A stretch of DNA of 36,830 nt from Candidatus Altimarinota bacterium (lineage in GTDB: Bacteria > Patescibacteriota > Gracilibacteria > BD1-5 > UBA2023): NCBI GenBank assembly GCA_043731405.1, contig JAYTJD010000025.1:1-36830 (forward strand), given 5' to 3'. The translations under genes and the position numbers were made by a program. Below the pieces are notes generated by a model. It was given only the letters and a program-made list of their open reading frames with translations. It had not been told where the DNA came from and made no database searches. Shown piece by piece: positions 10,999-31,277 of the stretch (its first letter is position 1; each line of letters starts with the position of its first letter).

Positions 10999-11577
10999 GT
11001 GTACAAAACAAATGCCGTCATCCTCAGTATATCGAGAATCCGTGACAATCAGACGCGTATTGTCATGATCTCTCAGGAATATGGCAAGATCACAGGATGG
11101 TGGAGCAAGAAAAATATAAGTGGGATAGATCTCGGGGACATCATCGAAGTCCTCATATCACGTGATGGCGGCAAGAATCAGGTCAAAAATATCGATATCA
11201 AAACACCGGGCTGGAGTCGCACCTGGAACTATGTACGCATAGTAGCATTTCTCGAAACTCTCCGAATCGTGAACCAGATGAGTAGGGAGTGATCAGAGTG
11301 TCGCTCTCTCTACGAGGATACTGCCGGCTTCATCACATATGGTAGATCCCAAGATATGACTCTATGACACCATACAATATTCCAGATGCGGATACTGAAG
11401 TCCCTTGGATCTATGGATAGATCCATCCTCGGAGAAGATCCTATTCTCGGATATATCTATGACCATGTATCTCACACTCCTCTCGATCGGATCCTCTCAT
11501 CGTCCAATGTCAGAACAGAACATATAGACAAGATACAACAGGCCAATCTCCACTCCCTCTATATGCTTGAACGATAA
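10999..11577 (+). CDS. recO: RecO-like DNA repair protein (192 aa), tentative
   Basis: GTG start at 10999. ORFs 10999..11292 and 11386..11577 share a frame and are joined by two TGA. The N-terminal OB-fold-like part MYKTNAVILSISRIRDNQTRIVMISQEYGKITGW resembles RecO N-termini, but the protein is short for RecO. Confidence 0.45.
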
Positions 11578-11581
11578 ATAT

Positions 11582-12541
11582 ATGATTTTTCTCCTTTTCA
11601 TTTTCTGAACTCTCGGACTCATATTCGGGAGCTTCTCGACAGTGCTCATCGAGAGATGGCAAAGTGGTAAGTGAGGTATCATGATGGGACGGAGTGAGTG
11701 TCCACACTGTCATCATATACTCTGATGGAGAGATCTCTTCCCTCTTATATCATACCTCTGGAGTCGAGGCAAGTGCTCCCACTGTGACATACCTATACCA
11801 GGTTTTTATCCGATAGCAGAGATCCTGATGGGATCTATTTTTGCTATAGTCGCATATGCGGGTATGCGTATCGGTATAGATCCCATTAGTATGGAGATGC
11901 TCCTACTCCTCTTATTCGCATTCACCACTGGTGTCTATATCCTCTATGACATGCGATACATGGAGATCCCCGACCAGATTATGGTACCCGTGATCTATCT
12001 GCTTCTGGCGATTCCATTTTTTTCACTTTTGTTCAGTTCATACACAGGGTATACTTTTCATACTTTTCATATACCTATCACAGATCGACTTTATGGGGCA
12101 TTTTTTCTCTATACGTTTTTCTATCTACAGATACTCATACCAGGCGGATATCATCTAGCAAAAAATAAAGACTGGAAGCATCTCTGAGAGCTCATACTAA
12201 GCTATATCACATTCCCTATAGTGATGCTCGTCGATATATGGAGAACACCGAAACAAGAAGAGACTCTCGAGATACCCACATGGATCGGTGGGGGTGATCT
12301 GCGTATTGCGATATTCGCCTGACTCACGCTCGGTGTAGTCCATGGGATCGCGAGTTTTGCATTTGCATATATCATCGGGAGTATCATATGAATCGCCATA
12401 CTTCTATACAATGCGATACAACGCAAAAAAACAGAATCCCAGATTCCATTTTGACCATTTCTTGGGATAGGCTGGATACTGAGTATCCTCTACTATCCGG
12501 AGATAATAGATCTATATCATATATTAGCTACAGGTCAATAA
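11582..12541 (+). CDS. pilD: Prepilin peptidase (type IV leader peptidase / N-methyltransferase, A24 family), 319 aa
   Basis: N-terminal zinc-binding region CPHCHHILGWRDLFPLISYLWSRGKCSHCDIPIPGFYPIAE. Catalytic regions DMRYMEIPD and IGGGDLRIAIFAG. Near-invariant PF-G-PFLGIG, where the G is a TGA. Seven in-frame TGA; TAA at 12539-12541. Confidence 0.9.
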
Positions 12542-13164: not shown

Positions 13165-14559
13165 ATGTGAAACGAATACTCTCGATCTCGATCAGCAACA
13201 GCGAATATTCCCTGGCTCTGGGTAGCAATACTCGCAGGTATCATTTTGCTCATTATCATAGCGAGCTCGTTCTGAGGGAGTGCAAGCGTAGATAATGATA
13301 GGGCTCATCTCATAGTAACTCCTCAGACGAGTGGAAGTACTGTGTTCATCGCGATGACTGAGTCATCCAAAAATCGCATCACAGGAACAGGAGGACAACC
13401 ACTCTACGTCGGTGACAAATCGATAACAGTCGAGACTGGTTGAGCTAGTGCAACAAATAGTGATATATCTCTCGATCTGGATGAGCGAACTGAGCTCATC
13501 TATCTCTCTCATACCAACACAGGAGATACGATCAAGCTCACCAAGTGAAGAGTGTGGATCAAACAGCTCTCCAATACAACTACTACAGAAACTAAAAACC
13601 TCAGTGTCACCACAGATGCTGGCAATGTTGCTATGATCGAGCAAAATAATCAGATATATAGTAGTGTATACTCTATAGTGTGAGATACCCGTATCCGTAC
13701 CTCAGTAGGAGAATATGTACTCAAGGCAGGCAACAGGATCATGGTATCTGCCTCTGATCTCGCAAATCCTGGACTGCAACTCGCGAGTCTCGTATGAGGT
13801 ATCGATGAGGGTATAATGTCAAATCCTCTTTTCATCCGCAATGATGGAAAACAACTCCTCAGTAGTCTCTCTGTATGACTATCGAATACTGGATCGAGCC
13901 TGGTCAATACTGGATCCACAGGGCCAGTGACTCAACCCATATCGATCCTCGAGCCACTCGATGGATCTCTTGCTACCAAGGCAACTGTAGTAGTACGAGG
14001 ATCTATCAACTCTCCAGATATAGTGAGGGTCACACTCAATGATCTCGATACTGTAGTGAGTCCCGTGAATCGTACATTCACCTTTGCAGAATTCCCTCTC
14101 ACCGCTCAGATCAACAATATCGTATACAAAGCATATATAGCAGATGGAACACAAGTAGCGAAATGAGTAGTCACAGTACTCGGATCCAAGCAGGCTCTCG
14201 ATCAGAGTGTGAATCGACTCCTCACCAATGCATCACCTATATCGAGCAAGGACTTCCGGATTGTCAGTCCAGCGAGCAATCCATATGTGATGACCGATAG
14301 TGCTATCAAGGTGCAATGAACTGTCACCAAGGATGCAGTGAACTATATCCTCGTCAATGGATACCGTCTCCAGAAATATATCCCTGGATCGACTACTTGG
14401 TACTATTTTGCCAATATGGCATCGAGCACACTCAAGGATGGTATCAATCTCTATACCATAGAGTTCTATGGAAACAAAGATGATATCCTCTATACACAAC
14501 TCTTCACGATAATCAAAGAATCAAAAAATGCAACTCTCTCTGGTGAGGCATCTCGATAA
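13165..14559 (+). CDS. Membrane-anchored protein with FecR-like and Ig-like beta domains (464 aa)
   Basis: ATG at 13165. ORFs 13927..14166 and 14338..14559 share frame 1, and the upstream part has only TGA stops (ten in total). N-terminal anchor IPWLWVAILAGIILLIIIASSF. FecR-like stretch YVGDKSITVETG-G-ASATNSDISLDLDERTELIYLSH...IKLTK-G-RVWI. TAA at 14557-14559. Confidence 0.6.
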
Positions 14560-15148
14560 AAATGGAGCCTCTCTCATAGAAATCATGGCTATGATAGCAG
14601 TGCTCGGACTCGCTGTGACGGCGATGTTCTCCACTGTGATCGGCGGGATCTACTTTGCTCGTGACTCTGAAAATAGGATCAAGGCAATCAATCTCGCCCG
14701 AGAGGGTATCGAATGAGTGACCAATCTGAGAAATACGAATTGGCTCAGATTCTCGAGTGATCAGACGAATTGCTGGAAGGTACAGTGATATCTTGCAGGC
14801 TGTATCGGTAACACTACTTCACTGGATAAGCTGGCAGATTACTCATATGTACTCACCAATTCCAATGGAGCGTGGTATCTCACGGGTGCCACCACAACAT
14901 CATCAGGGCTCTGGGTAGATGCAAATTGATACTATATGGCGAGTGGTGCCACCACCCCAAAATGTACTATTACCCTCGCAACGAACTGTAGGTCTCCCTT
15001 TACTCGTGAGATACGTATTACGAATGCGAGTAATATTGGTATTGGTAGTGGTAGCATAACGGTGACTGCCGTAGTCGACTGGTATGAGAAGCGAGCACAG
15101 AACGTGACCCTCAAAACGACGCTCACCAACTGGAAGAGCAAATTTTAG
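14528..15148 (+). CDS. Type IV pilin / pseudopilin-like protein (206 aa)
   Basis: Class III signal peptide MQLSLVRHLDKNG/ASLIEIMAMIAVLGLAVTAMFSTVIGG, with Gly at -1, Glu at +5 and a hydrophobic alpha-1 helix. Joined to ORF 14936..15148 across three TGA. Overlaps the preceding gene by 32 nt. TAG at 15146-15148. Confidence 0.75.
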
Positions 15149-16981: not shown

Positions 16982-18367
16982 ATGTCCCAAAAGAAAATCA
17001 TATTTTTTGTTATAGTCGGCCTCATTCTCGTGAGTCTCATTGCCACGGTAGCATATATATCCAGACAAAAGAAAACTACAAATACAGTACCAGCATCTCT
17101 CAAAATCTGGATCACAGATGGTACGACTGACTCGTACAAGTCCCTGATCGAGGGCTTCAAAAAATATGCCCCAGAATATAGTAAAACTGATATTATACTA
17201 GAGAAGCAAACAAATGATGCTGACAGATACCGTACCCTCCTACTCTCTACTCTCACTCAGTGAAGTGGACCAGATATATTCATGCTCCATAGTGGCGAAG
17301 ACGCTATACTCGAATCCCAGATCGAACCTATACCAAGTGATATACTGGATTTCTCTGATTTCGACAAGCGATATGATGACATCTTCCAGGGACTCCTCAC
17401 GTCTACTGGATCAAACAAGGATATGACAACCACACTCAAGTGAGTACCACTTGCTTATGAGACTCTCGGCGTGTTCTATAACAAGTCACTCATCCGCGAG
17501 GTCCCGAAGACATGGAATGAGCTCGAAGTCCTCTATAACGAATCAGTCCCTGGTAGATATCCGAGCAATATCGGACTCGGACCTACCTATACACCGAATA
17601 TGGGAGATATCCTACCGCTCTGGCTCATGGATGCAGGTGCTACCGGCTATAGTGATATATCTGATGGGCAATCAGGACTCATTTCATATCTAGACTATGG
17701 CGACCTCAAAACAGCAGCACCAGTAGACTCTGAGATATCGACTACCCCAGATACGCTCAGACGTGAGCAACCGAATATGCTCGCCAACAAAAATAATACA
17801 CTCGATATGTTTATGCAATGAGATATTGCGATGGTCATAGGCTATCCGAGTCTGATACTCGATCTAGAAAAATCGAGCAAACGAGTAGGATCTACGAGTT
17901 CAGCGGCTGTCATCCTGACCGAGAGGGTTCCAAAAAATAACTCACAGTCACATACCAATATAGGGAGATATTCTTACTTTGCTATTTCAAAACTCAGTAA
18001 CAAATGACTCATAGGAGTGAAGTTGCTCGAATATCTCATGACACCAGAGGCACAGCGACTCTACATCAATGAGTATCCGTATCTCATCCCCGCACAGAGT
18101 GAGTTTTATGCAAGTGTAGAGGATGTATCGCTCTCTGATACACTCTCAAGAACAAAACTTGCCCCTTTTATTCCCAGTATCGGTGATACACTCTCTGTGT
18201 TTCAGTATGGACTCAGGTCTCGATTTGATCAATACCTCAGAGAGGGTATCGATACATCGAGTACACCAGATATAGAGTCCATCACAGCCAAAATATCAAG
18301 AGATATAGGCTGTGATATAGGCATGTTGAGTCAATGAGAGTCATCGGGAGATTGCTCAAATCAATAA
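16982..18367 (+). CDS. Extracellular solute-binding protein (ABC type, family 1-like), membrane anchored, 461 aa
   Basis: ORFs 16982..17263, 17471..17821 and 18017..18337 share frame 2 and are joined across TGA. N-terminal anchor IIFFVIVGLILVSLIATVAYI. Reads LKIWITDGTTDSYKSLIEGFKKYAPEY...-G-SGPDIFMLHSG...-G-VPLAYETLGVFYNKSL. No permease or ATPase gene is adjacent. TAA at 18365-18367. Confidence 0.7.
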
Positions 18368-18376
18368 AACATTCAT

Positions 18377-18404
18377 AAAAATGCAACGAAAAGTTGCATT
18401 TTTT
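18377..18404 (+). terminator. Rho-independent terminator after the solute-binding protein gene
   Basis: AAAAATGCAAC and GTTGCATTTTT flank the loop GAAAA (stem 18381-18387 / 18393-18399), followed by a T-run. Confidence 0.65.
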
Positions 18405-18444: not shown

Positions 18445-21400
18445 ATGCGAAAAAACTCACTCATCATACTCATTCTCACGAGTCTTACTCTCTTTTTTGG
18501 ACTCTCGGTATCAGATACATTCGCGAGTTGTGGCGGATCATGGTTCTCGACGAGTTGTCCCGTGTCACCCTATTGTGCGGATGGCAAGTGTAGCATAGAC
18601 GAAGGGGTCAAAGCAGTAGAGAAAGCGGTAGATGGACAGATCACGAACAAATGAATTGCAGTATACGCTCAACAGATCGTGACGTATTTGATGACTTTTA
18701 TCTCCATCATAGCCGTGATATATATCATATATGCTGGATTCCAGCTCATGATCGGGGCTGGAGACGAAGAGAAGATGAAAAAAACTCGACAAATCATACT
18801 CTATGTCGTTCTCGGTATTCTCATAATGTGGCTTGCCTATCCGATCGTCAAATGGACAATCGGCATCGTCGCACCTGGTGGCCAAGTAGCCTATGAGTGG
18901 TCGATGATCCCAGGAGCTCAGGCATATACTGAGAGTGACTCTAATACCTATGCTGAGTATAAAAATAAGATCAAAGAGTGAATCAATCAAATGGAGAGCG
19001 AACTCCTCCTGAATAGATCAGTGAAAGTGAGTACCATGCAAAATGTCAAAAACCTCGTGCAATGAGGTTTTGATAGGTTACCAGACTATGGGGAAGCTGC
19101 CAGTATCAATAGAGAAGCCAAACAGGTCGTCGATACATATCTCGACCTCGCTATCAAAAATCCAGATAATTCTAATCATGTCGGCAACGCGATCTCTCGG
19201 GTAGCAAGTTTTGTAGATAGGGTCAGTATTTCTCGTATCACTGGTGATATCAGTGCTGGTCCTATCGAGGGCAACGCTCCCCTATCTGCTTCATTTCGAG
19301 CGGACAATATCCGTGATCCTTCAGGAACAACTCCAGCAGATGGCAATTATATATGGTGGACTCGTGAGAATGGTGGAATACGTCGTGAGCTCAGTCGTGG
19401 ACCTAGCCTTTCATATACATTCACCAAAGAGGGTACCTATACCGTATTTCTTGATGTGATATCAGGGAGCCGTAACAGTAAAGGAAAAACTGACGTCCTC
19501 CCACTCTCTGTATCCAAGCAGATACTCGTGAAACCAAAACTCGGGGAAATCATACTCCTCATCAATGGGGTCAATGTGAGCAATATGACGAGTCTCAAGC
19601 TCTCTCCTACGATCGGTAAGATGGGAGTAGTTCTCGATGCCTCAGCATCCCGAGCTATTGGGAATGGTACAATTGCCGAGACGACATGGGAGTTTGGTAA
19701 TGGCAATGACTCTACCAATCGTGGATGACCTATAGTAGAGAGACAACTCTATACGAATCAAGGGGGCTATATACTCAAACTCTCGATGAAAACTAATGAC
19801 GGGCAAACTATCTCAAAAGAAATACAACTCCTTGTACGTGATCCTGCTGCGATCATCAAACTCGACTCTGATACTGGCAAGATTGGAGAAGATATATCTA
19901 TGTCCGCTACTTCGTATTTTGCAGATACCAAAAATGTAGAATACTCATGGCAGATACAAGATGATAATGGCAAAAAAATAGTAAAAGTCTGAGAAGGTAC
20001 CAATTTCAGATACAAATTCGACACAGTAGGATCATATATCGTATCACTCACTGCTAAGAGTCCAAATGGCACTATTGATACCGACTCCAGGGTTATCACT
20101 ATAGAATCTCGTGATCCAGTGGTCACGATAGATTCACCACGACCCATCAGTAGTGAAAAACCGAATGTGATCACATTCGATGCATCCAAGAGCTATGATC
20201 CAGATACCAGTTCTCGCAAGAATCTCAGCTATACTTGGAGACTCGATGGAGAGAAAATATCCCTCAATAATACCGAAAATGATGGAGCAAAATGAAGCTA
20301 TACATTTGACGAAAAAGGAATACATACAATATCAGTCACCGTAGCCAATACCTATGGTAAGATCACCACCGTAGAAAAAGAATTCGAAGTAGTGTCGACA
20401 CTCGCAGTCAATATGATCATCACGCCCAAAGTAGTACAACGTGGATCCAATGTTACGGTGATTGGACAGTCTGCGAATGCTGAGTTTTTTGAGTGGAATA
20501 TGGGAGATGGGACTCCGATGATAAGTGGGACGAATCGATCCATACAACACACCTACAAACAATCAGGCGTCTACAACATCGTGATGAGTGTCAATCGCAA
20601 CTGAGGTACCGAGACAAATAGTATAACTCGCAAGATCTATGTATCTGATACAGATAGTCCATTTGCCATCATAGATTCAACGAACTCGTCCAATAGTATC
20701 ATCGAAGAAAAATGAGCTTGTAATGGCCTCGATGCCCTTGTGATAAATCGAGCTGATACAACTACGTTCAGTAGTAGTAATTCGGTGAATGTAGATGGTA
20801 CAACAAGTGGACTCACCTATACTTGGAAATATTTTGGTAAGGCTCGTACCACTCCCCAAATCTCTGAGAAATTCAACGAACTCGGATGCTTCCCTATCGA
20901 GCTCACAGTCAGATCCAACAAAAATGGGGCTAGTCATACTACAACTCAATACGTCAAGCTCGCGAATCATCCTCCAGAGCTCACAAGTCTCACGAGTAGT
21001 GTGGATGCAGCCAAAAAAGATAGCCAAAAAATCCTCGTAAAAGTACAAGCAAACGGAGCCACAGATGCTGATGGTGTCATCACATCATATATCTGGTACT
21101 ATACCACTGAGTCTGATCCAGAGCCACAAAATGTCCAAATCACACAAAGCAATAGCATTACTTTTGTACTTCCGAATATTACTGAAAAATACTTTTTTGG
21201 TGTGATACTCGAGGACAATGATGGAGCCAAGATGAACACAATGGAATCAGGACAGAGCCCCACTCCATTTATCATCGATAATTCAAATGGCAATATCAAT
21301 CTCCCACTCATCAATCTCTCGGTATCAAAATCAACGATAAATGTCGGGGAGAAGGTGCTATTCTCAGCAGATGTGAAGACCATCATACCAGGAGTCAATA

Positions 21401-23631
21401 TAACCAATAAGTCAGAATATGCGTGGGACTGGGATGGGGATGGCCGTATCGATGAGAAGAGTACTACATCGAGCATAGAGCATATCTATACACGAGCAGG
21501 TGACTACAATATGAAAATCCGTGTCACCAACAATGGGGTATCCAATAGTAAATATCAAAAAATACAAGTAAAAAATAAGCTCAAAGCTGGGGTCTACGGA
21601 TACAAGCTCCCGGATAATAGGATCTACCTGATGAATGCATCAGAAGGTGCCTACGAAACATCCCGATGGGAAGTAGGATCTACTGTATCTGATTCACCTA
21701 CATGAGTCATACTCGACAGTACGAATCTCCCTACAACTGGTAAACTCACGATATCGAGCAATACCAGTGATACATCTACCACAGATATAGACCTCTCAGT
21801 GCTCGAAACGATCTCAGGAACAGGTGTACTGTACCAATCATATCCAAGAGCAGTCGATGATACCATCACAGTGAAAAATCCGGGTGATACTCTACTCATC
21901 TCGATGTATGGAAATACAGCAACAAACTACGCTATCGATACGGATACCCTGATCGATACAAGTCTCGATGGTACTCCAGATAATGATGCAGATAACAAGC
22001 TCGATACATCATATACTGACGGCTCTACATATACATTCCATGATCTCTCGGGTACGAACAAGCGTGAACGCAAAATAGTGCTCTCTCTCATATCGAGTGG
22101 ATCGGTAGTGGCAAGCCGTACGATCACTGTCATCCTCGACTATATCGCAAGTACGAGCGAGGCGGATATATCACTCACAGGGAGCACAGCAGGACTCAGT
22201 ACAGCTGATAGGACCAAGCTCGAGGAGCTCTCAAAACTCATCCGAGAACTCACAGATAGTGATCGTATCATCCTCATGCAGCGATACAATACCCTAGTCG
22301 AGAACTGGAACAATACATTCGACAAGGCAAAATCACTCATCGACATCCAAGAAGGTATCGAGAGCGGAGCTATGACTAGTGACCAAAAGACGAAACTCTC
22401 AAAAGTAGTAGACGACCTACTCATCGGTGACTCACAAGTCACGGATGAGATAGCTATTGCGGTACGTCTCATCCGAGACCTCATCCCTGCAGAGAGTCCG
22501 AACCACGATGTACTCATATCGAAGTTGTCAGAAATCGAGTCACACCCGACACTCCTCACCGAGAACAAAAAACTCGGTAAAGAGATGCTCGTGCTCATCG
22601 AGACGGATACTACTATTCCTGATAAATACAAAGTCCATATCAAAAATCAACTCTCTATCATAGTAAATGGTGGATCTAGTGGTGTGACAACTGATAGTAC
22701 TGGATCAGTCATAGCAGAAGAGACTCCATCAACATGAGGTGGGATACTCGGATTTATCAGTGGATTTATCAAAATATTCTTTATCATAGTTGGTATCATT
22801 CTCCTGATTGGGGTTATTGGATTCATTTTTTATCGCCTCTCACGCAAAGATGATAATATCTGATTCCAGGACTTCCTGATTGACTCAGTATTCCATAGTC
22901 GCAAGGCGACACCTATCACCGTCGATACGAGTAGCAGTAGCGTAGTGGTCAACTGAGCACCTCCGCTCCCAAAAGAGGATCCTCTCGTCAGTTATACCCC
23001 AGCTCCTCCGATTGTGTCAACTCCATCCCCTGCCATAGATCCACTCACGACTGTTACACCTATTGTAATAAATACACAGCCTATATCAGCAGCCCTATTA
23101 ACAAGCGACAGTGTACCTGATTGGCTCAAGGCACCGTCGAGCATAGAAAAAGAGATGCCAAAAATAGAATCTACTCCAATAGCACAAACTATAGACTCCA
23201 TGTCTCCATTGTTTGAGGTCAATACACCAGAACCACCACCCATAGCTCCGACTCCGACGACGACTCTCTCCGATGATGGTATCCCTGACTGGATCAAAAA
23301 TAGTCCTGCAAATACCGATATACCCGTAGCGATAGACCCACTCGCGGCACCAAGTAACACTCTCGTTGATGGAGATAGCTTATCAAAAATAACTCCTACG
23401 ACAGAGCAACTCCCCGATTGGCTGATGAGCTCTGTCCAATCGGATACAACCCCTATATCTACATCTGATACTATAGATCCTCTCGTATCGCCATCATCAG
23501 AGACGCCGGTAGACACCGCACCGGTACAGGCTGTCAAAAAACCAGTCAAAAAATCCAAGAAAATAGAAGAAGTAGATACAACCTCTACACCACCAGCCCC
23601 TACAAGCGATATACCGAGTTGGTTGAAATAA
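18445..23631 (+). CDS. Giant surface protein (1728 aa): signal peptide, Cys-rich stretch, T4SS-pilin (TrbC/VirB2)-like two-helix domain, about eight PKD/Ig-like domains, helical domain, TM anchor, Pro/Thr-rich tail with PDWL repeats
   Basis: Nine track ORFs (18394.., 18679.., 19456.., 19786.., 20392.., 20740.., 21799.., 23014.. and others) are all in frame 1. I translated every gap and found 12 TGA but no TAA or TAG. ATG at 18445, TAA at 23629-23631. Pilin-like segment IVTYLMTFISIIAVIYIIYAGFQLMIGAGDEEKMKKTRQIILYVVLGILIMWLAYPI. PKD signatures include WEFGNGN, YTWRLDG, FEWNMGDGT...HTYKQSGVYNIVMSV and WDWDGDGRID...HIYTRAGDYNMKIRV. TM helix ILGFISGFIKIFFIIVGIILLIGVIGFIFY. Confidence 0.85.
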
Positions 23632-23664
23632 AAAAAAGGATAGTAAACATACTATCCTTTTTTT
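23631..23664 (+). terminator. Rho-independent terminator after the giant gene
   Basis: AAAAAAAGGATAGTA (23631-23645) and TACTATCCTTTTTTT (23650-23664) flank the loop AACA. Confidence 0.7.
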
Positions 23665-23731
23665 GAAAACCGTTTCTTTTTGACGAAAAAGATGTATTTT
23701 GGTATACTGATTCTATAATTTCTTTTTTCCT

Positions 23732-26044
23732 ATGGATACTCTCCCAAACAATACGAGTGCAGTAGCTCCAACCACATCTCCATCGCTTCTCGATCAGATC
23801 ATCCAGACTTCGCATGAGTCATCTCTCTCGGGAGTTATACCCACGGTAGTGGTAGGGCCTGATACTGCTAGTACGAGTCAAATAACTCCAATACGCAAGC
23901 CACGTGACCCTATGACCGCAGGAACAGTACTCAAGCTTATAGCATCACTACTTCTTGTTACGGTTATATTTTTTGGGAGCTTTTTAGCGTATGTTGTATT
24001 CAACCCAGATCAAGCGGCCTTTTTTGTCAATATATTTGGGATCGATCCGAATACTATACAGAATCTGTTGAAGTGATTGATCAATGGCAGTTTTGGTATC
24101 ACAGTGCTTATTTTTTCTATCGTGTGGATCACGAGTCTGTTTCGAGCGATATGGACACCTCGAGATCAAAAAAGACGCCGACTCATCAGTTGGCTCACAG
24201 CTGGTACGTTGGGTATTTTTCTCTTTAGTATTCTTGCCTTTTGGGCGTATCTTTTTAATATTATCAATGCAACCGACTATGCCAATCTCGGTGGTGATGT
24301 GAGTATATATGACAATGATCTCTATACGTATGCAGAGTCACTCCCCTTTGCTCGTGTAGGCTCTACTACGAGTCTCGTGGGTCCAATCAGTCTCAGATAT
24401 GATATATCGACCAATGCCCGTACCGTGGCCAAAAAAAATCTGATCACTATAACTGGATATGAGATCAATTTCGATGGAGCAAAGTGTGCCAATGATAAAT
24501 CTATCATGAATGGGTCTGATCCAACCACAGAAAAATGACTCATTTGTACATTCGACCAGGTGCGTACCTACAATATCCGAGGATCGTATACTGCTAGGAA
24601 CAAACTCGGTGAAACAGTACAGATCGATATACCGCTCTCAACTGTAGAGATCAAGTGACTCATCGAGAGCAATATCAATACCAACAAAGATGGCAAGAAA
24701 ATCATGACTATCTCTGCTGCCAAGGTTAAAAATCTCTGAAATCCCCGATGGAGGTATGCAACTATAGGGAGCTCTGATGAAGCAAAACCATCCATCACTG
24801 AGATTATATCGTCAACACCACTCCTGGTATGTCTGAAATTATTTGATACAGCGTGTGATAGATATTTTCTTATCAGTGATATCAGCGAGCATCGTATCGA
24901 GTGATCACTTTCATTCGTACAAGACTCTTTCAAGCCCCTATCAATAGTTGTATCACTCACTGGCACTACACTCCCAATCAATGAGATTGTCAGTATAGAC
25001 TGGATAGCCGATGACGGTACTCGTATGTGCCAATGAACATCTGAGAGTTGTGGGTATTCATTTTTGACCTATGGATCCAAGACTGTGACTGCTACGATAC
25101 GTCTCGCGAACAAAACAAGCTACCCTATAGAATGAACTGTAGTCATCAATGAGCCCCTCATCATCGCAAGACATGCACAGATACAAGATATAGATGGAAA
25201 ACTTCTTAATACACCTGAAACCTATGACCCTACGGTAAATGGCTATATCATACAGGGTCTCATCGCCCCCACTCGTATCACACTCGATGCTCGGGATGTC
25301 GTGAGTGAGAATCTCGGATATAGAGTGACAAATATCATCTGGAAAATAACAGATGGTAAAAACACTACAGAACTCGTCGGTGAACAGGTCTCATATGAGG
25401 TGAATCGCACCGATCGATATACAATAGAGGCTATGTATACTCTCGAAAAAAATATAGTCACGAGTAGCTCAGATACACGCACTGCTCGGGATCTCATCAT
25501 CCTCGATCTCGAACGCAAATCACTCGAACCAATACTGAAGATACAACAGTCGAGCGACTATACTCCAGCGAAGGTAACTGTCGATGCATCGACCTCCCGT
25601 AGCAAAAATGGAACGATCCAAAAATTCATTTTTGATTTTGGTGAGTGAAAACCCCAAACAGAGGGGGATGCTATCCAGACCTACGAATATCGTACACCAG
25701 GTGAGAAAAAAGTCACCCTCACCATCATCGATAATAACAATGAGCAAGTAACGATCAGCAAATATATCATTCTCAAAGATACTCCGAAAAATCTTGCATT
25801 TACTACGAGTATGTCACCATGAATTATTGGCTCTGCTGTAACATTCACCGCTGATGGTACTACTGGACAGATCGATGAATATATCTGGAATTTTTGAGAT
25901 AATACGCCTATTAGCAAATGATATGAGATAGATCATATCTTCAGTAAAGCTGAGAACTACAGTATCACCTTGACAGTACGATACACTGATGGAACAGAGC
26001 GAACAACGACTCAGGTATTCCGAGTCGATACGTCTCTCGAATAA
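23732..26044 (+). CDS. Polytopic membrane protein with large extracytoplasmic region ending in two PKD domains (770 aa)
   Basis: ORFs 23732..24076, 24077..24538 and 25301..25648 share frame 2, and the gaps contain only TGA. Three TM helices (VLKLIASLLLVTVIFFGSFLAYVVF, SFGITVLIFSIVWITSLF, LTAGTLGIFLFSILAFWAYLF). PKD signatures FIFDFGE-G-KPQTEGDAIQTYEYRTPGEKKVTLTIID and YIWNF-G-DNTPISK-G-YEIDHIFSKAENYSITLTV. TAA at 26042-26044. Confidence 0.8.
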
Positions 26045-26060
26045 ATATAGTAGTTTAAAC

Positions 26061-26092
26061 AAAAAAAAATCTGATTAATCAGATTTTTTTTT
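26061..26092. terminator. Bidirectional terminator between convergent genes
   Basis: Perfect 32-nt palindrome AAAAAAAAATCTGATT/AATCAGATTTTTTTTT. It overlaps the last codons of pyrH. Confidence 0.65.
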
Positions 26093-26815
26093 GTTGTGTT
26101 TTTTGGTATGGACATATGTACCTCGTATCTCCTCAGATCAGATCAGGTGCGTATCCTCGATCCGACAGACGAATATCGGCATATCCTCATCATGAGCCAG
26201 TGCGATAGCAGTCTGATCCATGATTCTCAGGTTCTTATGGAGAGCCTCCTCGAGCGAAAGGATCTCATAGTGCACTGCATCTGTGTGTTTCTTTGGGTCT
26301 TTATCATATATGCCATCTACCTTGGTTGCCTTCACTACACAGTCACACTGGAGCTCGAGGGCCCTGAGTACTGATGCTGAGTCAGTAGTAGCATACGGGT
26401 TGCCTGTACCGCCTACACAGATCACGACTCTCCCTTTCTCCATATGACGGAGTGCTCGCCTCGCTATGAAGTCCTCAGCTACTCGATGTGTCGGTACTGC
26501 TGACATCACTCGTACATCGACTCCAGCTGCCTCGATCGCTTCTCCTATAGCGAGTCAATTGATGATGGTAGCAAGCATCCCCATCTGATCTCCGATCACT
26601 CGATCAAATCCACCCTCCTCGAGTTGAATCCCACGGAAAATATTCCCACCACCGATCACTATCGCAATCTCGAGATGGCGGACCTGTACGAGATATACGA
26701 TCTTCTCAGCAATATAGGCGAGGAACACTGGATCGATCCCATATCACTGTTTTCATTGCAGGGCTTCACCAGAGAGTTTGAGGAGTATTCGTTTTGGGTT
26801 GTGATATTTTTTCAT
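26075..26815 (-). CDS. pyrH: UMP kinase (246 aa)
   Basis: ATG at 26815 reads [29 protein letters not shown] (both G are TGA; compare the conserved [13 protein letters not shown]). Further motifs [10 protein letters not shown] and [25 protein letters not shown]. The standard-code ORF 26138..26509 is only the middle part. TAA at 26075-26077. Confidence 0.9.
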
Positions 26816-26817
26816 AC

Positions 26818-27426
26818 CTAGAGTGAGATGTTGTTACCGAACAGGACAAATATAACAGAAAATCAGAGCACGAGGATAAAGAGGATAACGAGTGTGATGA
26901 TCGCTGAGTTGCGTTTGCCTACCTCGGATTCGAGCGTGGTGATCCGCCTCCCGAGAGCATCGGCATCATTATCCGATTTGGATTTTGCTGATTCAAGGAG
27001 GAATGCATTTTTTTTGTATTCGAGTACTGGCACAGAGCTCGCGAGCTCTGTCTCGGCCTTTCCGAGCTTGTATGAGAGCTCTTGAATGGTAGTATCCTTG
27101 CGGGCAATCTGATCACGAGCATCCTCATAGATACGTACGATTTCTGCTAGGGCTATATTCGACTGCTTGGGATCTGCGATATGTCTCCCTTTTGTCACGA
27201 TCTCTGGGATCTCACGCTCCGGTAGATCATCATGGATGACAATATAATCCTCTTCACGACGAGCTGGATCTGCCATACGGAGCGTCTCAATGTCATCTTC
27301 TTCGAGGTACATCTTTTTGCCAATACGGCGAGTACGGATACGCTCCGCCTGGATATGTCTATCTATCGTACGAGATGAGACTCCGAGACGACGCGATGCC
27401 TGATCTCTATCGAGGGAAAAAGCCAT
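26818..27426 (-). CDS. HTH (excisionase/MerR-like) - coiled-coil - C-terminal TM protein (202 aa)
   Basis: ATG at 27426 reads MAFSLDRDQASRRLGVSSRTIDRHIQAERIRTRRIGKKMYLEEDDIETL (helix-turn-helix). A coiled coil follows (IQELSYKLGKAETELAS...RRITTLESEVGK), then a hydrophobic tail AIITLVILFILVL-G-FSVIFVLFG. The TAG at 26818-26820 lies 2 nt before the pyrH start. Confidence 0.65.
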
Positions 27427-27542
27427 ACAAAAAATAGTAAAATATGAATGCAATGAGTGTATAAAAAACCTGAGAAAAATCAAACAAAAAACTACTCCAA
27501 GTGTATAAGTTAGTTAGATTATCTAGCTTCTGTTTTCTATAG

Positions 27543-28598
27543 TTACAATTCGGATGATCTCTCTTTGAAATTCTGGATTACAGTGTTGTAGGCTCGAAGA
27601 TAATCAAGGGTCATGTTCTTATAATTGAAAAAACTTTTTGTTCTACTCGATATATACGTCCTATCCATATCAAAGCAATCTTGAATTTTGTGGTATCATT
27701 CTTCAAAGTCTTCGACCAATATTCCAGTTTTTCACTCTTCGATGAGTTCTGGCATAGATCATTTTTTGATTGCTAGTGTAGGAGTACCGCAATATGCAGA
27801 CTCTAATACAGTCAGACCAAAAGGTTCTCTAAATCCGGTAGGATGTATATTGCATTTTGCATTACTTATAAGCTCTATTTTATCCTTCATTTCCAATTCT
27901 CATAGATATTCTATAAGAGGATTATTCAGATATGGCTTGATCTCTTCAATAAAGTATTCAAACCCAAAAAAATCTATTTTTCATCACATTTTTAATTTTA
28001 TTCACAATTGTAGTGCCAACTGTATAGCAAGATGGGGATTTTTCGTTTCATCAAATCTACCAATAAAGCAAATATAGTCCTCTGGTGTTTCATTAAAAGG
28101 AAATTCATCCGGATCTATTCAATTATAACAATTTCAACAATACCGTAATCCTGGGAATGCTTCTTGTTGGTTTTTAGAAATACTTGCATAAAAAAGCTCT
28201 CGTCTTTCTTCATAATATTGCATATTTTCCATAATGATTGGACCATGCAAAGTTGTGATATTCGGTACATCACGAAAATCTAGGAGATCGAATCCATGAG
28301 AATGTATGATATCAACATCTCACTTTATACTATGTAAAATTTTTTTTGTTGTGTCAAGAATTCATTTAATTTTGATTTCTACTTCAATATTTTCTTCTGG
28401 TGTCTTTCAGAAATTTATTGACTTTTCGCAAGTTGGTATGACTTCACAGCTCACATCACTGTCTCCGGGTCAGATAAGAATCGGTTCATGCCCGAGTTCT
28501 TGTAACCCTTTAATCAGATAAAAAATAACTCGCTCTGTTCACCCATACTTCTTAGGGGGCACTGGGAGATATGGAGAAGAAATTATGGCTATTTTCAT
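27543..28598 (-). CDS. Glycosyltransferase family 4 (GT-B, group 1), 351 aa, 14 in-frame UGA
   Basis: This gene is absent from the standard-code track. ATG at 28598 reads MKIAIISSPYLPVPPKKYG-G-TERVIFYLIKGLQELGHE. C-terminal nucleotide-sugar motif EPFGLTVLESAYCGTPTLAIKK-G-SMPELIEE-G-KTGILV. TAA at 27543-27545. Confidence 0.85.
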
Positions 28599-28612
28599 AG
28601 TTTTTAAGTTTA

Positions 28613-28684
28613 GAATTAAACCAAAAAAAATCACGATTTAATATAGAAAATCCCATCCATTATAACAAGTTTTTGGTTTAATTC
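28613..28684. repeat. 15-nt perfect inverted repeat GAATTAAACCAAAAA / TTTTTGGTTTAATTC with 42-nt spacer
   Basis: Arms at 28613-28627 and 28670-28684, starting 15 nt upstream of the GT4 start codon. Confidence 0.6.
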
Positions 28685-28806
28685 AATATTTGATGCTCAT
28701 AAATACTCCTCACACTATCTGAATCTTTATCAGAAGAAGAATAGATCGATACTACTAGGAATAAGGTTAGTAATTTTACTTTTCAGTGTGGATTTACTCG
28801 AGAAAT

Positions 28807-28824
28807 TTGTCTTCTTTTTGTCTT
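28807..28824 (+). promoter_or_regulatory. Direct repeat TTGTCTT-N4-TTGTCTT (11-nt period), copy A
   Basis: Repeats at 28807-28813 and 28818-28824, with TATACT 21 nt downstream (28846-28851). A near-identical block occurs at 33631-33648. Confidence 0.4.
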
Positions 28825-29498
28825 TTCATCTTGAACTTTATTTTCTATACTAAAAAAGCGTCTTTAAAACTTTGAATTAAATGGTAATCATTCACTCATT
28901 GAGATTGTTCAATAAGTAGAGGATAAAAGTTTATAGAAAACAAAGTAAATAAATAAAAAAACTATCAGATTTATTCTTCATGTGTTATTTATTATATTGT
29001 ATCAATTACATCATACAATGTCACAGAGGAACGATGAATAATAACCTAACTCAAGGATATTTTAGTGGATATGATTAGCTATGGACACTATCGTAGTATT
29101 GTCCCGTTGCGAATTGGGAAGCTCATAGATTGAAGAGTATTATCTCTCTTGTTGTTATTCCTGAATTAATTCATTGTTAATTTCCTTTCCTATAATAATT
29201 ATACATGGTAGATATTTTTAATCTTTTAAGTATTAAGCATATGTTTTGTTGATATAAAAATATACATCACGTATGAATCCGATCACCGACAACAATGGGT
29301 ACATTTTTATATATTGTTTGAATATAATCTAAAAAATAATTTACATGTATATTCACTCAGTTATGAAAAGTTAAAATAATTTATTGATAATTGCAATGGC
29401 AGTTACGATAGTAGTAATAAATATATTTTTCTAATATAAAAAAATCTAAATAGAAAATCGAATTATGATTAACGCAATAACATTAACACTATGAACAC

Positions 29499-31277
29499 AT
29501 GAAACAATTGCATAAAAAAATTATCAGTTGAGCAGTAGTAACAACACTACTCCTCTTAACCAACATCAACGCATTTGCATCGAGTCACCGTGAAGCTCCT
29601 ATAATTAGTGGAGATCCAAGGGTAGATGCAACTGATCTATACGCATTCGTGAGTCCTGACCAGACGGATACAGTGACACTGATTGCGAACTATATACCAT
29701 TCGAGGAACCAGCAGGTGGGCCCAATTTTGACACATTCGATGACAATGCTCTCTATGAGATCAATATTGATAATAATGGTGATGCCATACCTGACACCAT
29801 TTATCAGTTCAGATTCAAGACTACTGTCGGTAACCCGAATACATTCCTCTACAATGTTGGGGCGATAGAGTCACTGACGGATCCTGACTGGAACGTTCGT
29901 CAGACATATACTCTCACGAAAATAGAGAATGAAGTATCTACAGTACTCGGTACTGATCTGATGTCTCCCCCAGTCAATATCGGACCCAAGTCAACACCTA
30001 ACTATGCAGCTCTGCAAGCATCTGCAATCCACACTCTACCAAGCGGTATAAAAGTATTTGCTGGACAAAGTGCTGATCCATTTTTCGTAGACCTTGGATC
30101 TACTTTTGATCTCCTATCAATACGTAATTTACCAGGTAATGCTGGTGGAGGAATCAATACAACAAAAGGGTTCAACGTGCACTCTCTCGCACTCCAGATC
30201 CCTAAAGTTCAGTTAACTAAAAACAAAGTAATACCTACAGACGCCACTAGTGGTGACGCTGTGATCGGAGTATGGACAACAGCCTCTCGTATGAGTACTC
30301 GTGTACTCAACACCAATGGAACTCAAGATAACTCGGGTCCATGGGTACAAGTATCTCGTCTCGGTGCTCCTCTCGTGAATGAGGTAGTTGTTCCTCTCGG
30401 AGCAAAAGATCTCTTCAATAGATCTAAGCCAAAGAATGATGCTCAGTTCGCAAATGGAGTAGCTGATCCAGAGGTAGGCAAACTCCTCTATGCTCTCTAT
30501 AATATACAAGTCCCTCCTCAGTGACCATTTGGCTCTGGAAATGCACGAGATGATCTTGTAGCAATATTTCTCACAGGAATACCTCAGCTCACTCAACCTA
30601 CAAATGTAGTAGCATCTGAACAGCTCCGTCTCAATCTAGCCATAGCACCTACTGCTAGTCCTAATAGACTCGGTGTACTCGGTGGTGATACTGCAGGATA
30701 TCCAAATGGGCGTAGGCTCACTGATGATGTGATAGATATATCACTCCAAGCAGTAGCAGGAGCTGCGTATCCTCTATTTCATACAGGATTCGTTGCTGAT
30801 CCTACATGACTCAAGCTCGGTGATGGAGTAGATGCAACTGACTCAGTTCTACGTACTACCTTCCCATACATGGGTCTCCCAAATCGTGGATTCGAGAGCG
30901 TACCACATGGTAACTACTCAATGGGTAATAGTGGAACTGGAGTCACTGGAACTGGAGTCACTGGAACTGGTACAACTGGAACTGGAGTCACTGGGACTGG
31001 ATACACAGGAACTGGAATGACAGGGACTGGATACACAGGAACTGGAATGACAGGGACTGGAAACTGAAATGGTTCAGTATTTGTTATATGTAATATAACA
31101 GATCGTCTTGAGTACAAATCTAGAGGACAAGTAGTCAAATGTCTGCAACAATATCTCAAGGATAATTGATACATCAGTATCAAGAATCCAACAGAATTCT
31201 TCGGAATAGTCACTAGAGAAGGCCTGAAAAAATGGCAGAGAAATAACAGACAAGAAGCAACAGGATATCTCAATTAA
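29499..31277 (+). CDS. DUF4331-family secreted protein fused to a GTGxT repeat linker and a C-terminal peptidoglycan-binding-like domain (592 aa)
   Basis: ATG at 29499 reads MKQLHKKIIS-G-AVVTTLLLLTNINAFA/SSHREAPIISGDPRVDATDLYAFVSPD (the DUF4331 N-terminal signature). It is in frame with ORFs 29649..30524 and 30870..31067. The tail ICNITDRLEYKSRGQVVKCLQQYLKDN-G-YISIKNPTEFFGIVTREGLKKWQ resembles PG_binding_1. TAA at 31275-31277. Confidence 0.8.
30933..31064 (+). repeat. Tandem 15-nt repeat (about 8.8 units) encoding GTG(V/T/Y/M)T pentapeptides
   Basis: GGAACTGGAGTCACT and variants. The 30-nt unit GGGACTGGATACACAGGAACTGGAATGACA is duplicated exactly (30993-31022 and 31023-31052). The repeat is in frame within the DUF4331 gene. 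Confidence 0.9.

Follow-up and report, generated by a model that had tools for sequence, protein, structure and literature searches.

A pilin-family hairpin encoded in a single open reading frame with a giant PKD-domain protein in Gracilibacteria

The analysed stretch of DNA (36,830 nt, hereafter the window) harbours a gene for a protein of 1728 amino acids (aa), in which a two-helix hairpin of the pilin family PF18895 is fused to an array of PKD domains, a third transmembrane (TM) helix and a predicted cytoplasmic tail. In a survey of 80 species-representative Gracilibacteria/Peregrinibacteria loci (GTDB), 31 carried the fusion as a single ORF, as did three metagenome loci. Judged from these sequences, the fusion of pilin and giant is real and old. 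We give a slight preference to the interpretation that a T4SS-type pilin hairpin and the giant are made as one continuous Sec-exported precursor, and that both would act in one contact apparatus. The original prediction did not recognise the architecture as a described one, and in the literature we found no published description of a fusion between a pilin hairpin and a PKD giant; in databases, the giants are named 'hypothetical protein'. The gene and the parts of its product are as follows.

18445-23631 (+): giant gene, 1728 codons, code 25, TAA stop at 23629-23631
18445-18525 (+): Sec-type signal peptide, aa 1-27, ending in T-F-A before S28, hydrophobic segment aa 4-26
18526-18654 (+): extracellular Cys-rich segment, aa 28-70, Cys at 29, 38, 44 and 49
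18655-18873 (+): VirB2-like/T4SS_pilin two-helix hairpin, aa 71-143, with the predicted cytoplasmic loop GAGDEEKMKKTRQ
18874-18924 (+): junction, aa 144-160, ending in I-P-G-A-Q-A, candidate signal-peptidase I site A160/Y161 (nt 18924/18925)
18925-19254 (+): four-helix bundle, aa 161-270, with the conserved YTESD as its first residues, from the AlphaFold model of orthologue P0004
19258-21576 (+): eight PKD/Ig-like domains, aa 272-352, 375-466, 468-555, 573-647, 646-735, 765-841, 846-932 and 956-1044
21826-22149 (+): beta-sandwich, aa ~1128-1235, with the Asp-rich motif DTDTLIDTSLDGTPDNDADN at aa 1165-1184 (nt 21937-21996)
22192-22674 (+): membrane-proximal eight-helix bundle, aa ~1250-1410 (AlphaFold model)
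22741-22836 (+): third TM helix, aa 1433-1464, followed by the basic R-LSRK, Kyte-Doolittle value 3.26
22837-23628 (+): predicted cytoplasmic Pro/Ser/Thr-rich tail, aa 1465-1728, 264 aa
23113-23130, 23281-23298, 23410-23427 and 23611-23628 (+): four copies of the tail motif (V/I/L)-P-(D/S)-W-(L/I)-(K/M)

The predicted signal peptide is present, as is the two-helix hairpin, which contains the sequence originally quoted for it, while the supposed five-Cys stretch between them has only four cysteines. Fused and stand-alone family members alike keep C29, C38, C44 and C49 with few or no exceptions. In the AlphaFold model of orthologue P0004, the signal peptide region forms a helix (2-21), the Cys-rich segment has low model confidence, and the hairpin helices are modelled at positions 73-105 and 110-147 with a pLDDT of about 80. 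The A-x-A rule suggests that the signal peptide is cleaved after aa 27.

When aa 1-272 were analysed alone, the T4SS_pilin model PF18895 scored 29.0 bits (cut-off 26.6) and matched aa 69-137 with model positions 3-70 of 71, whereas its score of 23.0 bits for the whole protein falls below the cut-off. The TrbC model yielded 21.5 bits for aa 1-272, which is below its cut-off of 27.9. The expectation that the hairpin scores with pilin models thus holds for PF18895 but not for TrbC; PKD models match the protein as well. Orthologues pass the PF18895 cut-off with 28.5-52.6 bits, and one of them (P0143) also passes that of TrbC. The top NCBIfam match of the hairpin is NF045849, a Mycoplasma ICE pilin-like conjugal transfer protein (E 4.7e-6), and homologues are labelled 'VirB2 component (pilin)' by JGI. 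A profile search with the hairpin retrieved 33,560 cluster representatives, most of which are stand-alone proteins around 140 aa long; tandem proteins with 3-8 hairpins also belong to this family. No solved conjugative pilin was detectable from the hairpin by sequence search, and a fold search with a helical hairpin carries no information on pilin identity. The profile matches place the N-terminal hairpin in the pilin family PF18895. Its mean identity of 0.53-0.65 is the highest in the protein (signal peptide 0.23, third TM helix 0.43) and all family-invariant residues are retained, indicating that the hairpin is more than a membrane anchor.

The VirB2-like pilins of Patescibacteria (PF18895; related TrbC/VirB2 PF04956; PMC12102498) share with the giant a signal peptide, a two-helix hydrophobic hairpin and a short charged cytoplasmic loop. 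Known PF18895 members, however, comprise about 100-150 aa and are often encoded in gene arrays, whereas the hairpin makes up the first 8% of the 1728 aa here. Paralogues in genomes encoding the giant lie beside T4SS ATPases: at least 10 of these MAGs carry tandem triple-hairpin paralogues between two VirD4/TraG-type ATPases, which links paralogous hairpins to T4SS genes. The locus of the giant differs in this respect, with no T4SS genes in the 36,830-nt window. Neither a 2025 survey nor a 2025 review mentions a fused or modular VirB2.

In one nested clade (8 GTDB loci and L004), a 150-aa pilin gene lies adjacent to a gene for a giant with its own signal peptide. As adjacent separate genes are confined to this clade, the split arrangement is a derived fission; separate orthologues occur there only, and the fusion of the window stands. 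The separate genes show that hairpin and giant can work as separate polypeptides. At the same time, a single ORF in the 31 GTDB and three metagenome loci and the adjacency of both genes in the split clade point to a functional coupling of pilin and giant.

In the preferred model, the N-terminal signal peptide would be removed first. The first hairpin helix would then cross the membrane from outside to inside, the conserved GDEEKxKK loop would remain in the cytoplasm, and the second helix would cross back out, acting as an export signal for the ectodomain of about 1,290 residues, which consists of the four-helix bundle, the eight PKD domains, the beta-sandwich and the helical bundle. The third helix would be the C-terminal anchor. 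Pilin module and giant would be parts of one cell-surface contact apparatus, in which the PKD giant acts as an adhesin-like receptor, stoichiometric with and beside a T4SS-type pilin assembly whose ATPases would be encoded elsewhere in the genome.

Whether the two parts stay connected depends on the junction, which is poorly conserved (mean identity 0.20) and predicted to be disordered (pLDDT 40-54 in the P0004 model). Within it, an (A/T)-x-A motif directly precedes the conserved YTESD: position -1 of the candidate site is Ala in 30 of 35 orthologues, position -3 is A/T/V/S in 27, and a Pro is usually found near -5. The signal peptide of the split-clade giants ends in the same A-x-A motif. Such a conserved motif in a disordered junction suggests that the product may be cleaved instead of being anchored at both ends, and we put cleavage of the precursor by signal peptidase at (A/T)-x-A|YTESD at roughly even odds. 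Cutting there would set free a pilin of about 130 aa and leave the giant as a type I membrane protein, an arrangement that is directly encoded in the split clade. During maturation of RP4 TrbC and Agrobacterium VirB2, an N-terminal leader is removed, and TrbC additionally loses a C-terminal extension before cyclisation. TrbC hence provides a precedent for a VirB2-family precursor whose C-terminal extension is cut off after membrane insertion. In the giant, the extension is a conserved functional protein in its own right, some 1,570 residues long, and its cleavage is suggested by the A-x-A motif.

Less probable, but still a serious alternative, is that the surface protein stays uncleaved and forms a loop with an anchor at either end, the hairpin being the N-terminal anchor of a handle-like 1,290-aa ectodomain. 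In such a loop, the hairpin could possibly dock sideways onto other hairpin proteins. The single ORF in 31 species is compatible with this topology, and the tandem proteins with 3-8 hairpins demonstrate that covalently linked hairpins are tolerated in the family. Furthermore, the candidate site lies 17 residues past the end of the second hairpin helix; since the c-region of a typical signal peptide is shorter, the A-x-A motif could merely be part of the ectodomain. However, conservation of this motif, with its Pro, in an otherwise variable junction argues against an uncleaved loop, as do the split-clade giants, which work without a covalent hairpin. In addition, the hairpin would not have to be conserved more strongly than any other segment if it were a mere anchor. 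Anchoring at both ends, as in the originally proposed topology with about 1300 aa outside the cell, is doubtful.

The third TM helix is the strongest hydrophobic segment of the protein and precedes a tail with 17% Pro and 25% Ser + Thr, matching the predicted 260-aa Pro/Thr-rich tail. All 35 orthologues have this helix and a tail with conserved terminal peptides. Most of the orthologues carry 4-6 tail copies of a D-(I/L)-P-x-W-L-K motif, and 31 of the 35 terminate in (I/L)P(D/S/N/E)WLK; in the window protein, the fourth copy forms the C-terminus. The last 8 aa have a mean identity of 0.60, compared to 0.19 for the remainder of the tail, and across 1.14 Mb of related DNA, none of the other ~5,970 ORFs contains the motif. 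We assume that the disordered tail would offer its 4-6 peptides, one of them C-terminal, to a putative cytoplasmic partner. The C-terminal peptide of FtsZ, D-I/V-P-x-F-L-R/K, is a docking peptide for FtsA, ZipA, SepF and others. Its residues are of the same kinds in the same order (acidic, hydrophobic, Pro, any, aromatic, Leu, basic), and it, too, forms the very end of a disordered linker; FtsZ of a related MAG ends in DDLDVPAFLRKKI. The giant differs in having Trp instead of Phe, 4-6 copies and a membrane location, and we regard the similarity as a resemblance only.

The conserved helix and tail also weigh on the idea of a modular pilin, in which the hairpin would polymerise with stand-alone pilins in an extracellular VirB2-type filament and the PKD array would be displayed on a minor, tip or base subunit. 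Pilin-family membership and the retained invariant residues fit this idea. In the F-pilus structure, both termini of the pilins are on the outside, which would allow the display of a C-terminal module. Modular pilins are known from type IV pili (PMC8179133). Such type IV pilins, for example Streptococcus sanguinis PilB, and two-domain adhesins such as FimH share with the giant the covalent joining of a pilin module to an adhesive module, but pilin fold and assembly machinery are unrelated. The giant also has a classical signal peptide instead of a class III prepilin leader, plus a C-terminal TM helix and tail that PilB/FimH-type adhesins lack. These would tether the C-terminus to the membrane, and for steric reasons, a 70-aa subunit with 1,590 aa attached could be incorporated only rarely. 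We know of no demonstration of pilus formation by PF18895 proteins and consider a modular pilin unlikely.

The weakest alternative, an artefact in which several standard-code genes, a pseudogene or a chimeric assembly appear continuous only through TGA read-through, is already effectively refuted: the standard code splits the region into many short ORFs and database gene callers broke homologues likewise, but the 1728 codons contain no TAA or TAG, orthologues carry Gly in the TGA columns, PKD domains continue without a break over TGA positions, and the whole architecture recurs in 31 species, including an orthologue (L060) with the same end-to-end organisation and no TGA at all. Frame 1 of 18445-23631 (+) has exactly 12 internal stops, each of them TGA, which confirms that nine standard-code ORFs form a single gene. 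TAA and TAG account for 2.27% of trinucleotides in the window, and the chance of a frame of this length staying open is about 6e-18. The ATG at 18445 is the same start as in the orthologues (MRKN...), and in-frame TGA is present in all long neighbouring ORFs, too. Opposite the TGA codons, the alignment of the 35 orthologues has Gly in 8101 cells, followed by Ser in 1943, with Trp outside the top eight. Where database homologues were translated with TGA as Trp, the W residues coincide exactly with invariant Gly positions (YAWF vs YAGF; IGWGDEEK vs IGAGDEEK). On both grounds, TGA encodes Gly in the giant gene.

In the ectodomain, the expected eight or so PKD/Ig domains were found between aa 272 and 1044, comprising seven clear PKD domains and one K319L-like PKD (aa 846-932), with boundaries taken from a family-built profile. 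The Pfam matches are PKD_4 (1e-46 over seven stretches), PKD (5e-42) and K319L-like_PKD (30.2 bits). PKD domains are of a generic kind, and the array gives no clue to a ligand. The confident four-helix bundle between hairpin and PKD array (helices 168-258, pLDDT 91-96 in the P0004 model) did not feature in the original prediction; Foldseek returned only generic four-helix bundles for it, all with E > 0.1. In place of the supposed helical domain of roughly 300 aa, there is a beta-sandwich and, behind it, a bundle of helices spanning about 155 aa (aa 1253-1407). Modelling of aa 1088-1430 of the window protein placed the strands at positions 41-144 of this piece (pLDDT ~60-80) and the helices at 166-320 (pLDDT 70-89). 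With Foldseek, the beta-sandwich gave only weak cadherin/Ig-like matches (all E > 0.1) and the membrane-proximal bundle no significant fold match; homologues of the latter were found only inside the giant-protein family.

The following features surround the giant gene.

11567-12541: prepilin peptidase of the type IV pilus kind
14528-15148: pseudopilin-like gene of the type IV pilus kind
16982-18367 (+): membrane-anchored solute-binding-protein (SBP)-like protein, 461 aa, upstream partner (SBP_bac_8 2e-16, SBP_bac_1 6e-13)
18377-18403 (+): terminator-like hairpin, 11-bp stem and T-run, between SBP gene and giant
23632-23666 (+): A-tract/8-bp stem/T-tract hairpin directly after the stop of the giant, read from the sequence
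23732-26044 (+): polytopic membrane protein with two PKD domains at the end of a large ectodomain (TM-PKD), downstream partner (PKD_4 3e-24)
26058-26095: terminator-like hairpin in the region of the end of the TM-PKD gene

The hairpin at 23632-23666 was not called by the scanner, as its stem has too few G-C pairs. The TM-PKD gene probably starts at ATG 23732, behind a promoter-like site at 23680-23708. The neighbours conserved throughout are the SBP-like gene, directly upstream in 30 of 34 orthologous loci, and the TM-PKD gene, directly downstream in 31 of 34. The proposed proximity to a second PKD membrane protein is thereby borne out, whereas the pilus genes are of the type IV kind and not T4SS genes, lie 3-7 kb upstream and remain close to the giant gene only in the nearer clade, which makes them a weak link.

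In the related predator Vampirococcus lugosii, giant PKD membrane proteins were proposed to function in host recognition and attachment (PMC8080830). Compared by description, the giant resembles the very large PKD membrane proteins of this and other predatory or episymbiotic CPR bacteria, but no pilin-like module, conserved tail peptides or fusion/fission history were reported in that study (PMC8080830). Together with the PKD array and the SBP-like and TM-PKD neighbours, these proteins point to a surface-exposed, adhesin-like character. We infer that the giant may be an adhesin coupled to a T4SS-type pilin and involved in host attachment. The fusion is conserved across a lineage of likely parasitic bacteria and is probably part of their cell-contact machinery.

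The gene at 18445-23631 (+) is open in frame 1 for 1728 codons, which are interrupted solely by 12 TGA codons and closed by TAA. In-frame TGA is also present in every long ORF adjoining this gene, which encodes the giant protein. The product was aligned with 35 orthologues taken from other assemblies. Opposite TGA codons, Gly occupied 8101 cells, followed by Ser (1943) and Ala (1177), and Trp was outside the top eight residues. Codon 617 of the window gene faces Gly in 21/21 orthologues and codon 1473 in 27/29. Homologues in databases that were translated with TGA as Trp carry W at invariant Gly sites (YAWF vs YAGF; IGWGDEEK vs IGAGDEEK). Judging from the Gly columns and these misplaced Trp residues, the genome uses code 25, with TGA read as Gly. 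The original prediction of a single recoded gene was thus borne out by the 12 TGA codons, the TAA-only end and the Gly columns. A tRNA scan of the window, aimed at tRNA-Gly(UCA), yielded zero tRNA genes of any kind. The nearest relatives are MAGs of Gracilibacteria, led by JANNYQ01 with 92% identity across the pilin segment.

The N-terminal module was modelled on the orthologous protein P0004 and the C-terminal ectodomain on the exact TGA-free stretch of the window. The segments of the giant are as follows.

aa 1-27: signal peptide, ending TFA before S28 (hydrophobicity and model)
aa 28-70: Cys-rich segment with four Cys
aa 71-143: two-helix hairpin with loop GAGDEEKMKKTRQ (hydrophobicity and model)
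aa 144-160: junction, predicted to be disordered (model)
aa 161-270: four-helix bundle (pLDDT 91-96, orthologue model)
aa 272-1044: eight PKD-type domains (Pfam and mapped units)
aa 1045-1127: low-confidence stretch (model)
aa ~1128-1235: beta-sandwich with Asp-rich motif DTDTLIDTSLDGTPDNDADN, the motif at nt 21937-21996 (model)
aa ~1253-1407: eight-helix bundle (model)
aa 1433-1464: third TM helix, TM3 (hydrophobicity)
aa 1465-1728: Pro/Ser/Thr-rich tail

Hydrophobic segments in the N-terminal part lie at aa 4-26, 73-106 and 114-143, and the modelled helices at 73-105 and 110-147. The five Cys residues initially counted in the N-terminal stretch proved to be four. About eight PKD domains had been expected, and this number stands: PKD_4 (154.6 bits) and PKD (142.1 bits) matched in seven stretches, K319L-like_PKD added 30.2 bits, all passing their Pfam cutoffs, and eight units could be mapped. 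Basic residues come after both the hairpin loop and TM3, a placement that fits the predicted topology with anchors at both ends of the ectodomain. Foldseek searches of both models against the PDB gave nothing at E ≤ 0.001, with generic four-helix bundles and weak cadherin/Ig-like sandwiches as the hits; the non-PKD ectodomain folds (four-helix bundle, beta-sandwich/helical bundle) are thus without a significant PDB match. The C-terminal half had no NCBIfam match at cutoff. The Asp-rich motif appears similar to the D-x-D-x-D-G repeats with which thrombospondin type 3 or cadherin-like domains bind calcium.

At its N-terminus the protein has a signal peptide of the classical kind, with the end T-F-A↓S, and no class III prepilin leader (G↓F/M-x-x-x-E). 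Such a leader is present in the neighbouring gene 14528-15148 (..GASLIEIMAMIAVLGLAV). A lipoprotein reading of F-A-S-C was ruled out, position -1 being D, L or N in family members. With a signal peptide followed by two hydrophobic helices and a short charged loop, the window protein has the T4SS_pilin layout. The expectation that the hairpin scores with pilin HMMs held for PF18895 (T4SS_pilin) when aa 1-272 were searched alone (29.0 bits, E 1.1e-6, model positions 3-70 of 71; Pfam gathering cutoff 26.6 bits). It failed for the whole 1728-aa protein, which reached only 23.0 bits with the same model, and for PF04956 (TrbC/VirB2), with which the N-terminus scored 21.5 bits (cutoff 27.9 bits). Orthologous giants scored 28.5, 31.4, 31.7, 37.3 and 52.6 bits with PF18895, and the TrbC cutoff was passed by the orthologue P0143 (28.9 bits) and the 8-hairpin protein P0051 (51.2 bits). 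The top NCBIfam match was NF045849, a Mycoplasma ICE 'pilin-like conjugal transfer protein' (E 4.7e-6, under its cutoff). A PDB-sequence profile search for solved conjugative pilins returned GPCR helices alone (E ≥ 0.026), and Foldseek of the N-terminal model generic helical bundles alone. The Patescibacteria T4SS literature (PMC12102498, PMC12857230) yielded no structure or experiment for any PF18895 protein. The 1369-aa variant giant P0185 carries two pilin-like hairpins before its PKD array (PF18895, 52.6 bits in two stretches).

A profile of the hairpin matched 33,560 cluster representatives at E ≤ 1e-3, the best 150 of which are mostly stand-alone proteins of 135-160 aa. With 1728 aa, the window protein exceeds the size norm of the T4SS_pilin family, whose members are small and stand-alone (~100-160 aa). 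Processing at the putative cleavage site A160/Y161 would result in a family-typical size. The hairpin is the best-conserved part of the giant (mean identity 0.53-0.65), which argues that it does more than anchor the protein.

Gene calling with the standard code has left all N-terminal homologues in databases short. When their contigs were re-read with TGA as sense, L001 and L002 turned out to be 1731-aa fusions and L003 a fusion of at least 1750 aa. A survey of related genomes for the same fusion had been suggested. When GTDB species were scanned with one genome each, 80 loci were obtained: hairpin, bundle, PKD array and C-terminal domains lie in one ORF in 31/80 loci, and the fusion is cut by a contig end in one more. 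Separate orthologous genes, named beforehand as a refutation, do occur, in 8/80 loci that form one nested clade; there a ~150-aa pilin gene ends with TAA or TAG and the giant starts ~130-150 nt later. Two loci are interrupted (L019, L039), and the remaining 38 hold stand-alone or multi-hairpin genes. The ORF ends 377 aa past the hairpin in L019 and 229 aa past it in L039, with PKD-coding sequence continuing downstream; candidate explanations are a frameshift, a pseudogene and an assembly error.

When the ectodomain common to both forms was placed in a neighbour-joining tree, the split giants grouped as one clade nested among fused ones. Because of this nesting, the fused state is ancestral and the split state a derived fission. 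The split giant of L004 has its own hydrophobic signal sequence and aligns to the window protein from YTESD, the conserved start of the four-helix bundle, to the C-terminus. The orthologue in L060 has zero TGA in 1819 codons, and those in L048 and L053 have one each, so the fusion is independent of recoding. Some fusion carriers are labelled Peribacteria, a member group of Peregrinibacteriota.

Standard-code calling cuts the giant at its first TGA, and the N-terminal piece is annotated as a free-standing 'VirB2 component (pilin)' (P0003, P0013, P0019 and similar). Pilin counts in recoded lineages can be inflated in this way, and surveys can be misled by fragmentary calls.

The residue before YTE(S/N)D is Ala in 30/35 orthologues, position -3 is A, T, V or S in 27/35, and Pro is usually found near -5. 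Small residues at -1 and -3 with this spacing are the classical signal-peptidase I pattern. The junction is the least conserved part of the protein (mean identity 0.20; pLDDT 40-54), and in the split clade the same A-x-A-type motif closes the N-terminal signal peptide of the giant. On the simplest reading, which we consider about evenly balanced, cleavage takes place at this site in fused and split forms alike. The window gene product would then be a precursor, giving rise upon cleavage to a ~130-aa pilin and a giant of type I membrane topology. What speaks most against processing is the position of the candidate site, 17 residues past the second hairpin helix; an uncleaved loop anchored at both ends is a possible but less probable outcome. 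That the protein is a modular pilin built into a filament is improbable, since the C-terminal TM helix and the tail are universally conserved. An artefactual long ORF can be dismissed almost outright, the chance of such an open frame being ~6e-18 (TAA and TAG make up 2.27% of trinucleotides), a value that likewise speaks for a single recoded gene.

In this lineage the hairpin family has a link to the T4SS, because two VirD4/TraG-type ATPases flank genes for proteins with three hairpins in tandem in the same genomes as the giant. These ATPases matched T4SS-DNA_transf with 34.2 bits (cutoff 20.1), TrwB_AAD_bind with 24-26 (20.5) and TraG-D_C with 29 (22). The giant's own locus is not T4SS-linked: none of the 28 window ORFs belongs to a T4SS family, the giant is not placed near VirB4 or VirD4/TrsD, and its hairpin is the sole copy in the window. 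The flanking ATPases are ~810-1000 aa long. Such tandem 'polypilins', with three pilin-like hairpins per polypeptide, were observed in L079 (7224-8201) and also in L064, L074, L080, L081 and L083; P0047 and P0051 have up to 6-8 in one polypeptide. Each polypilin hairpin bears a G-x-G-D-E-E-K-x-K-K loop. No description of covalently tandem VirB2-like pilins was found in the Patescibacteria T4SS literature.

The predicted cytoplasmic tail has a mean identity of 0.19, and its last eight residues reach 0.60. Most of the 35 orthologues contain 4-6 copies of (I/L/V)-P-x-W-(L/I)-(K/M), usually with an acidic residue before, and (I/L)P(D/S/N/E)WLK forms the C-terminal end in 31/35. The copies in the window are:

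nt 23113-23130 (+): tail motif
nt 23281-23298 (+): tail motif
nt 23410-23427 (+): tail motif
nt 23611-23628 (+): tail motif, forming the C-terminus

The motif is carried by 38 giant ORFs and by none of ~5,970 other ORFs in 1.14 Mb of related DNA. As there are no carriers besides the giants, its partner is not guessable from co-occurrence. From its pattern, the tail resembles a series of short peptides on which a cytoplasmic partner could dock. The C-terminal docking peptide of FtsZ has a pattern like the D-(I/L)-P-x-W-L-K of the giant, which likewise ends on its motif. The only FtsZ among the fetched loci, from a related MAG (L058, + strand, ORF from 6590), ends ...DDLDVPAFLRKKI. Mimicry of the FtsZ peptide may be regarded as a lead.

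The neighbourhood of the giant contains the following features.

16982-18367: solute-binding-protein-like gene, directly upstream of the giant in 30/34 orthologous loci
18377-18403: terminator-like hairpin after the solute-binding-protein-like gene
within 23632-23740: small hairpin right after the stop of the giant
23680-23708: promoter-like site TTGACG-17-TATACT, before ATG 23732
directly downstream of the giant: polytopic TM-PKD membrane protein gene, in this position in 31/34 loci, even at ~30% identity
26058-26095: terminator-like hairpin after the TM-PKD gene

The giant was originally placed beside pilus genes and a second PKD membrane protein. The latter part was upheld by the TM-PKD gene; the former applies to the nearer clade, in which alone the prepilin peptidase, the pseudopilin-like gene and the M23 peptidase farther upstream are kept. 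The true start of the TM-PKD gene is probably ATG 23732, not 23663. A bicistronic operon of both genes was considered and is weakened by the hairpin after the giant's stop and the promoter-like site before ATG 23732. The conserved membrane proteins encoded at 9097-10989 and 13165-14559 (630 and 464 aa) had no Pfam family and no NCBIfam match at cutoff; the 464-aa protein is syntenic with the prepilin peptidase and pseudopilin-like gene in 20/34 loci. The G + C content is 0.32-0.34 over 27000-30000 compared to ~0.43 elsewhere in the window. This stretch holds a group-1 glycosyltransferase gene (27543-28634, -) with 14 in-frame TGA codons and a ~860-nt gap without a long ORF before 29499. A secreted-looking DUF4331 protein (29499-31277, E 6e-154) has a (T-G-T-G-x)n repeat and a C-terminal peptidoglycan-binding domain, and 34694-36460 (-) encodes a secreted-looking 588-aa DKNYY-family protein.

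The evidence supports a coupling of pilin and adhesin; adhesion, cleavage and partner binding are inferred. The fusion/fission history argues that hairpin and giant act together, and the tail peptides suggest that the giant is connected to something in the cell interior. A possible role in host contact is indicated by the PKD array, by the conserved membrane neighbours and, by analogy, by the lifestyle of related bacteria (PMC8080830). A more far-reaching reading, rather unlikely as a whole, is that VirB2-type pilin and giant adhesin form one precursor and one transmembrane linkage: the PKD array would grip the host or prey, the pilin would seed or dock a T4SS-type pilus or channel there, and an FtsA/SepF-like or ATPase partner would bind to the tail peptides, so that contact is coupled to the cytoskeletal or secretion machinery.

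VirB2-like pilins of Patescibacteria are described as small proteins encoded in arrays of 2-11 genes, and no pilin fusion is reported in these T4SS papers (PMC12102498; PMC12857230). Searches for literature on PF18895 and on modular VirB2 pilins found nothing relevant. Full-length giants have been public since 2012 as 'hypothetical protein' (EKE26220.1, PID83779.1), and with no fusion in the T4SS literature, the assumption that the architecture was previously undescribed appears justified. The fusion is new; the kinds of components, a VirB2-like pilin and a PKD surface protein, are already known. In the one genetically tractable lineage, both the T4SS and the array of VirB2-like pilins belonging to it are essential (Wang et al. 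2023, as summarised in PMC12857230).

If the one-linkage reading is true, the giant would be a modular or polyprotein VirB2 pilin without precedent, and it would offer the first structural hint as to how Patescibacteria point their essential T4SS at the host. Patescibacteria (CPR) account for much of bacterial diversity, and most of them live attached to other cells. The conserved pilin-giant gene ties a T4SS-type pilin physically to an adhesin-like, putative host-contact protein; the two parts are separate in one clade yet still adjacent. The fusion, conserved across a lineage, makes a link between pilin and host testable.
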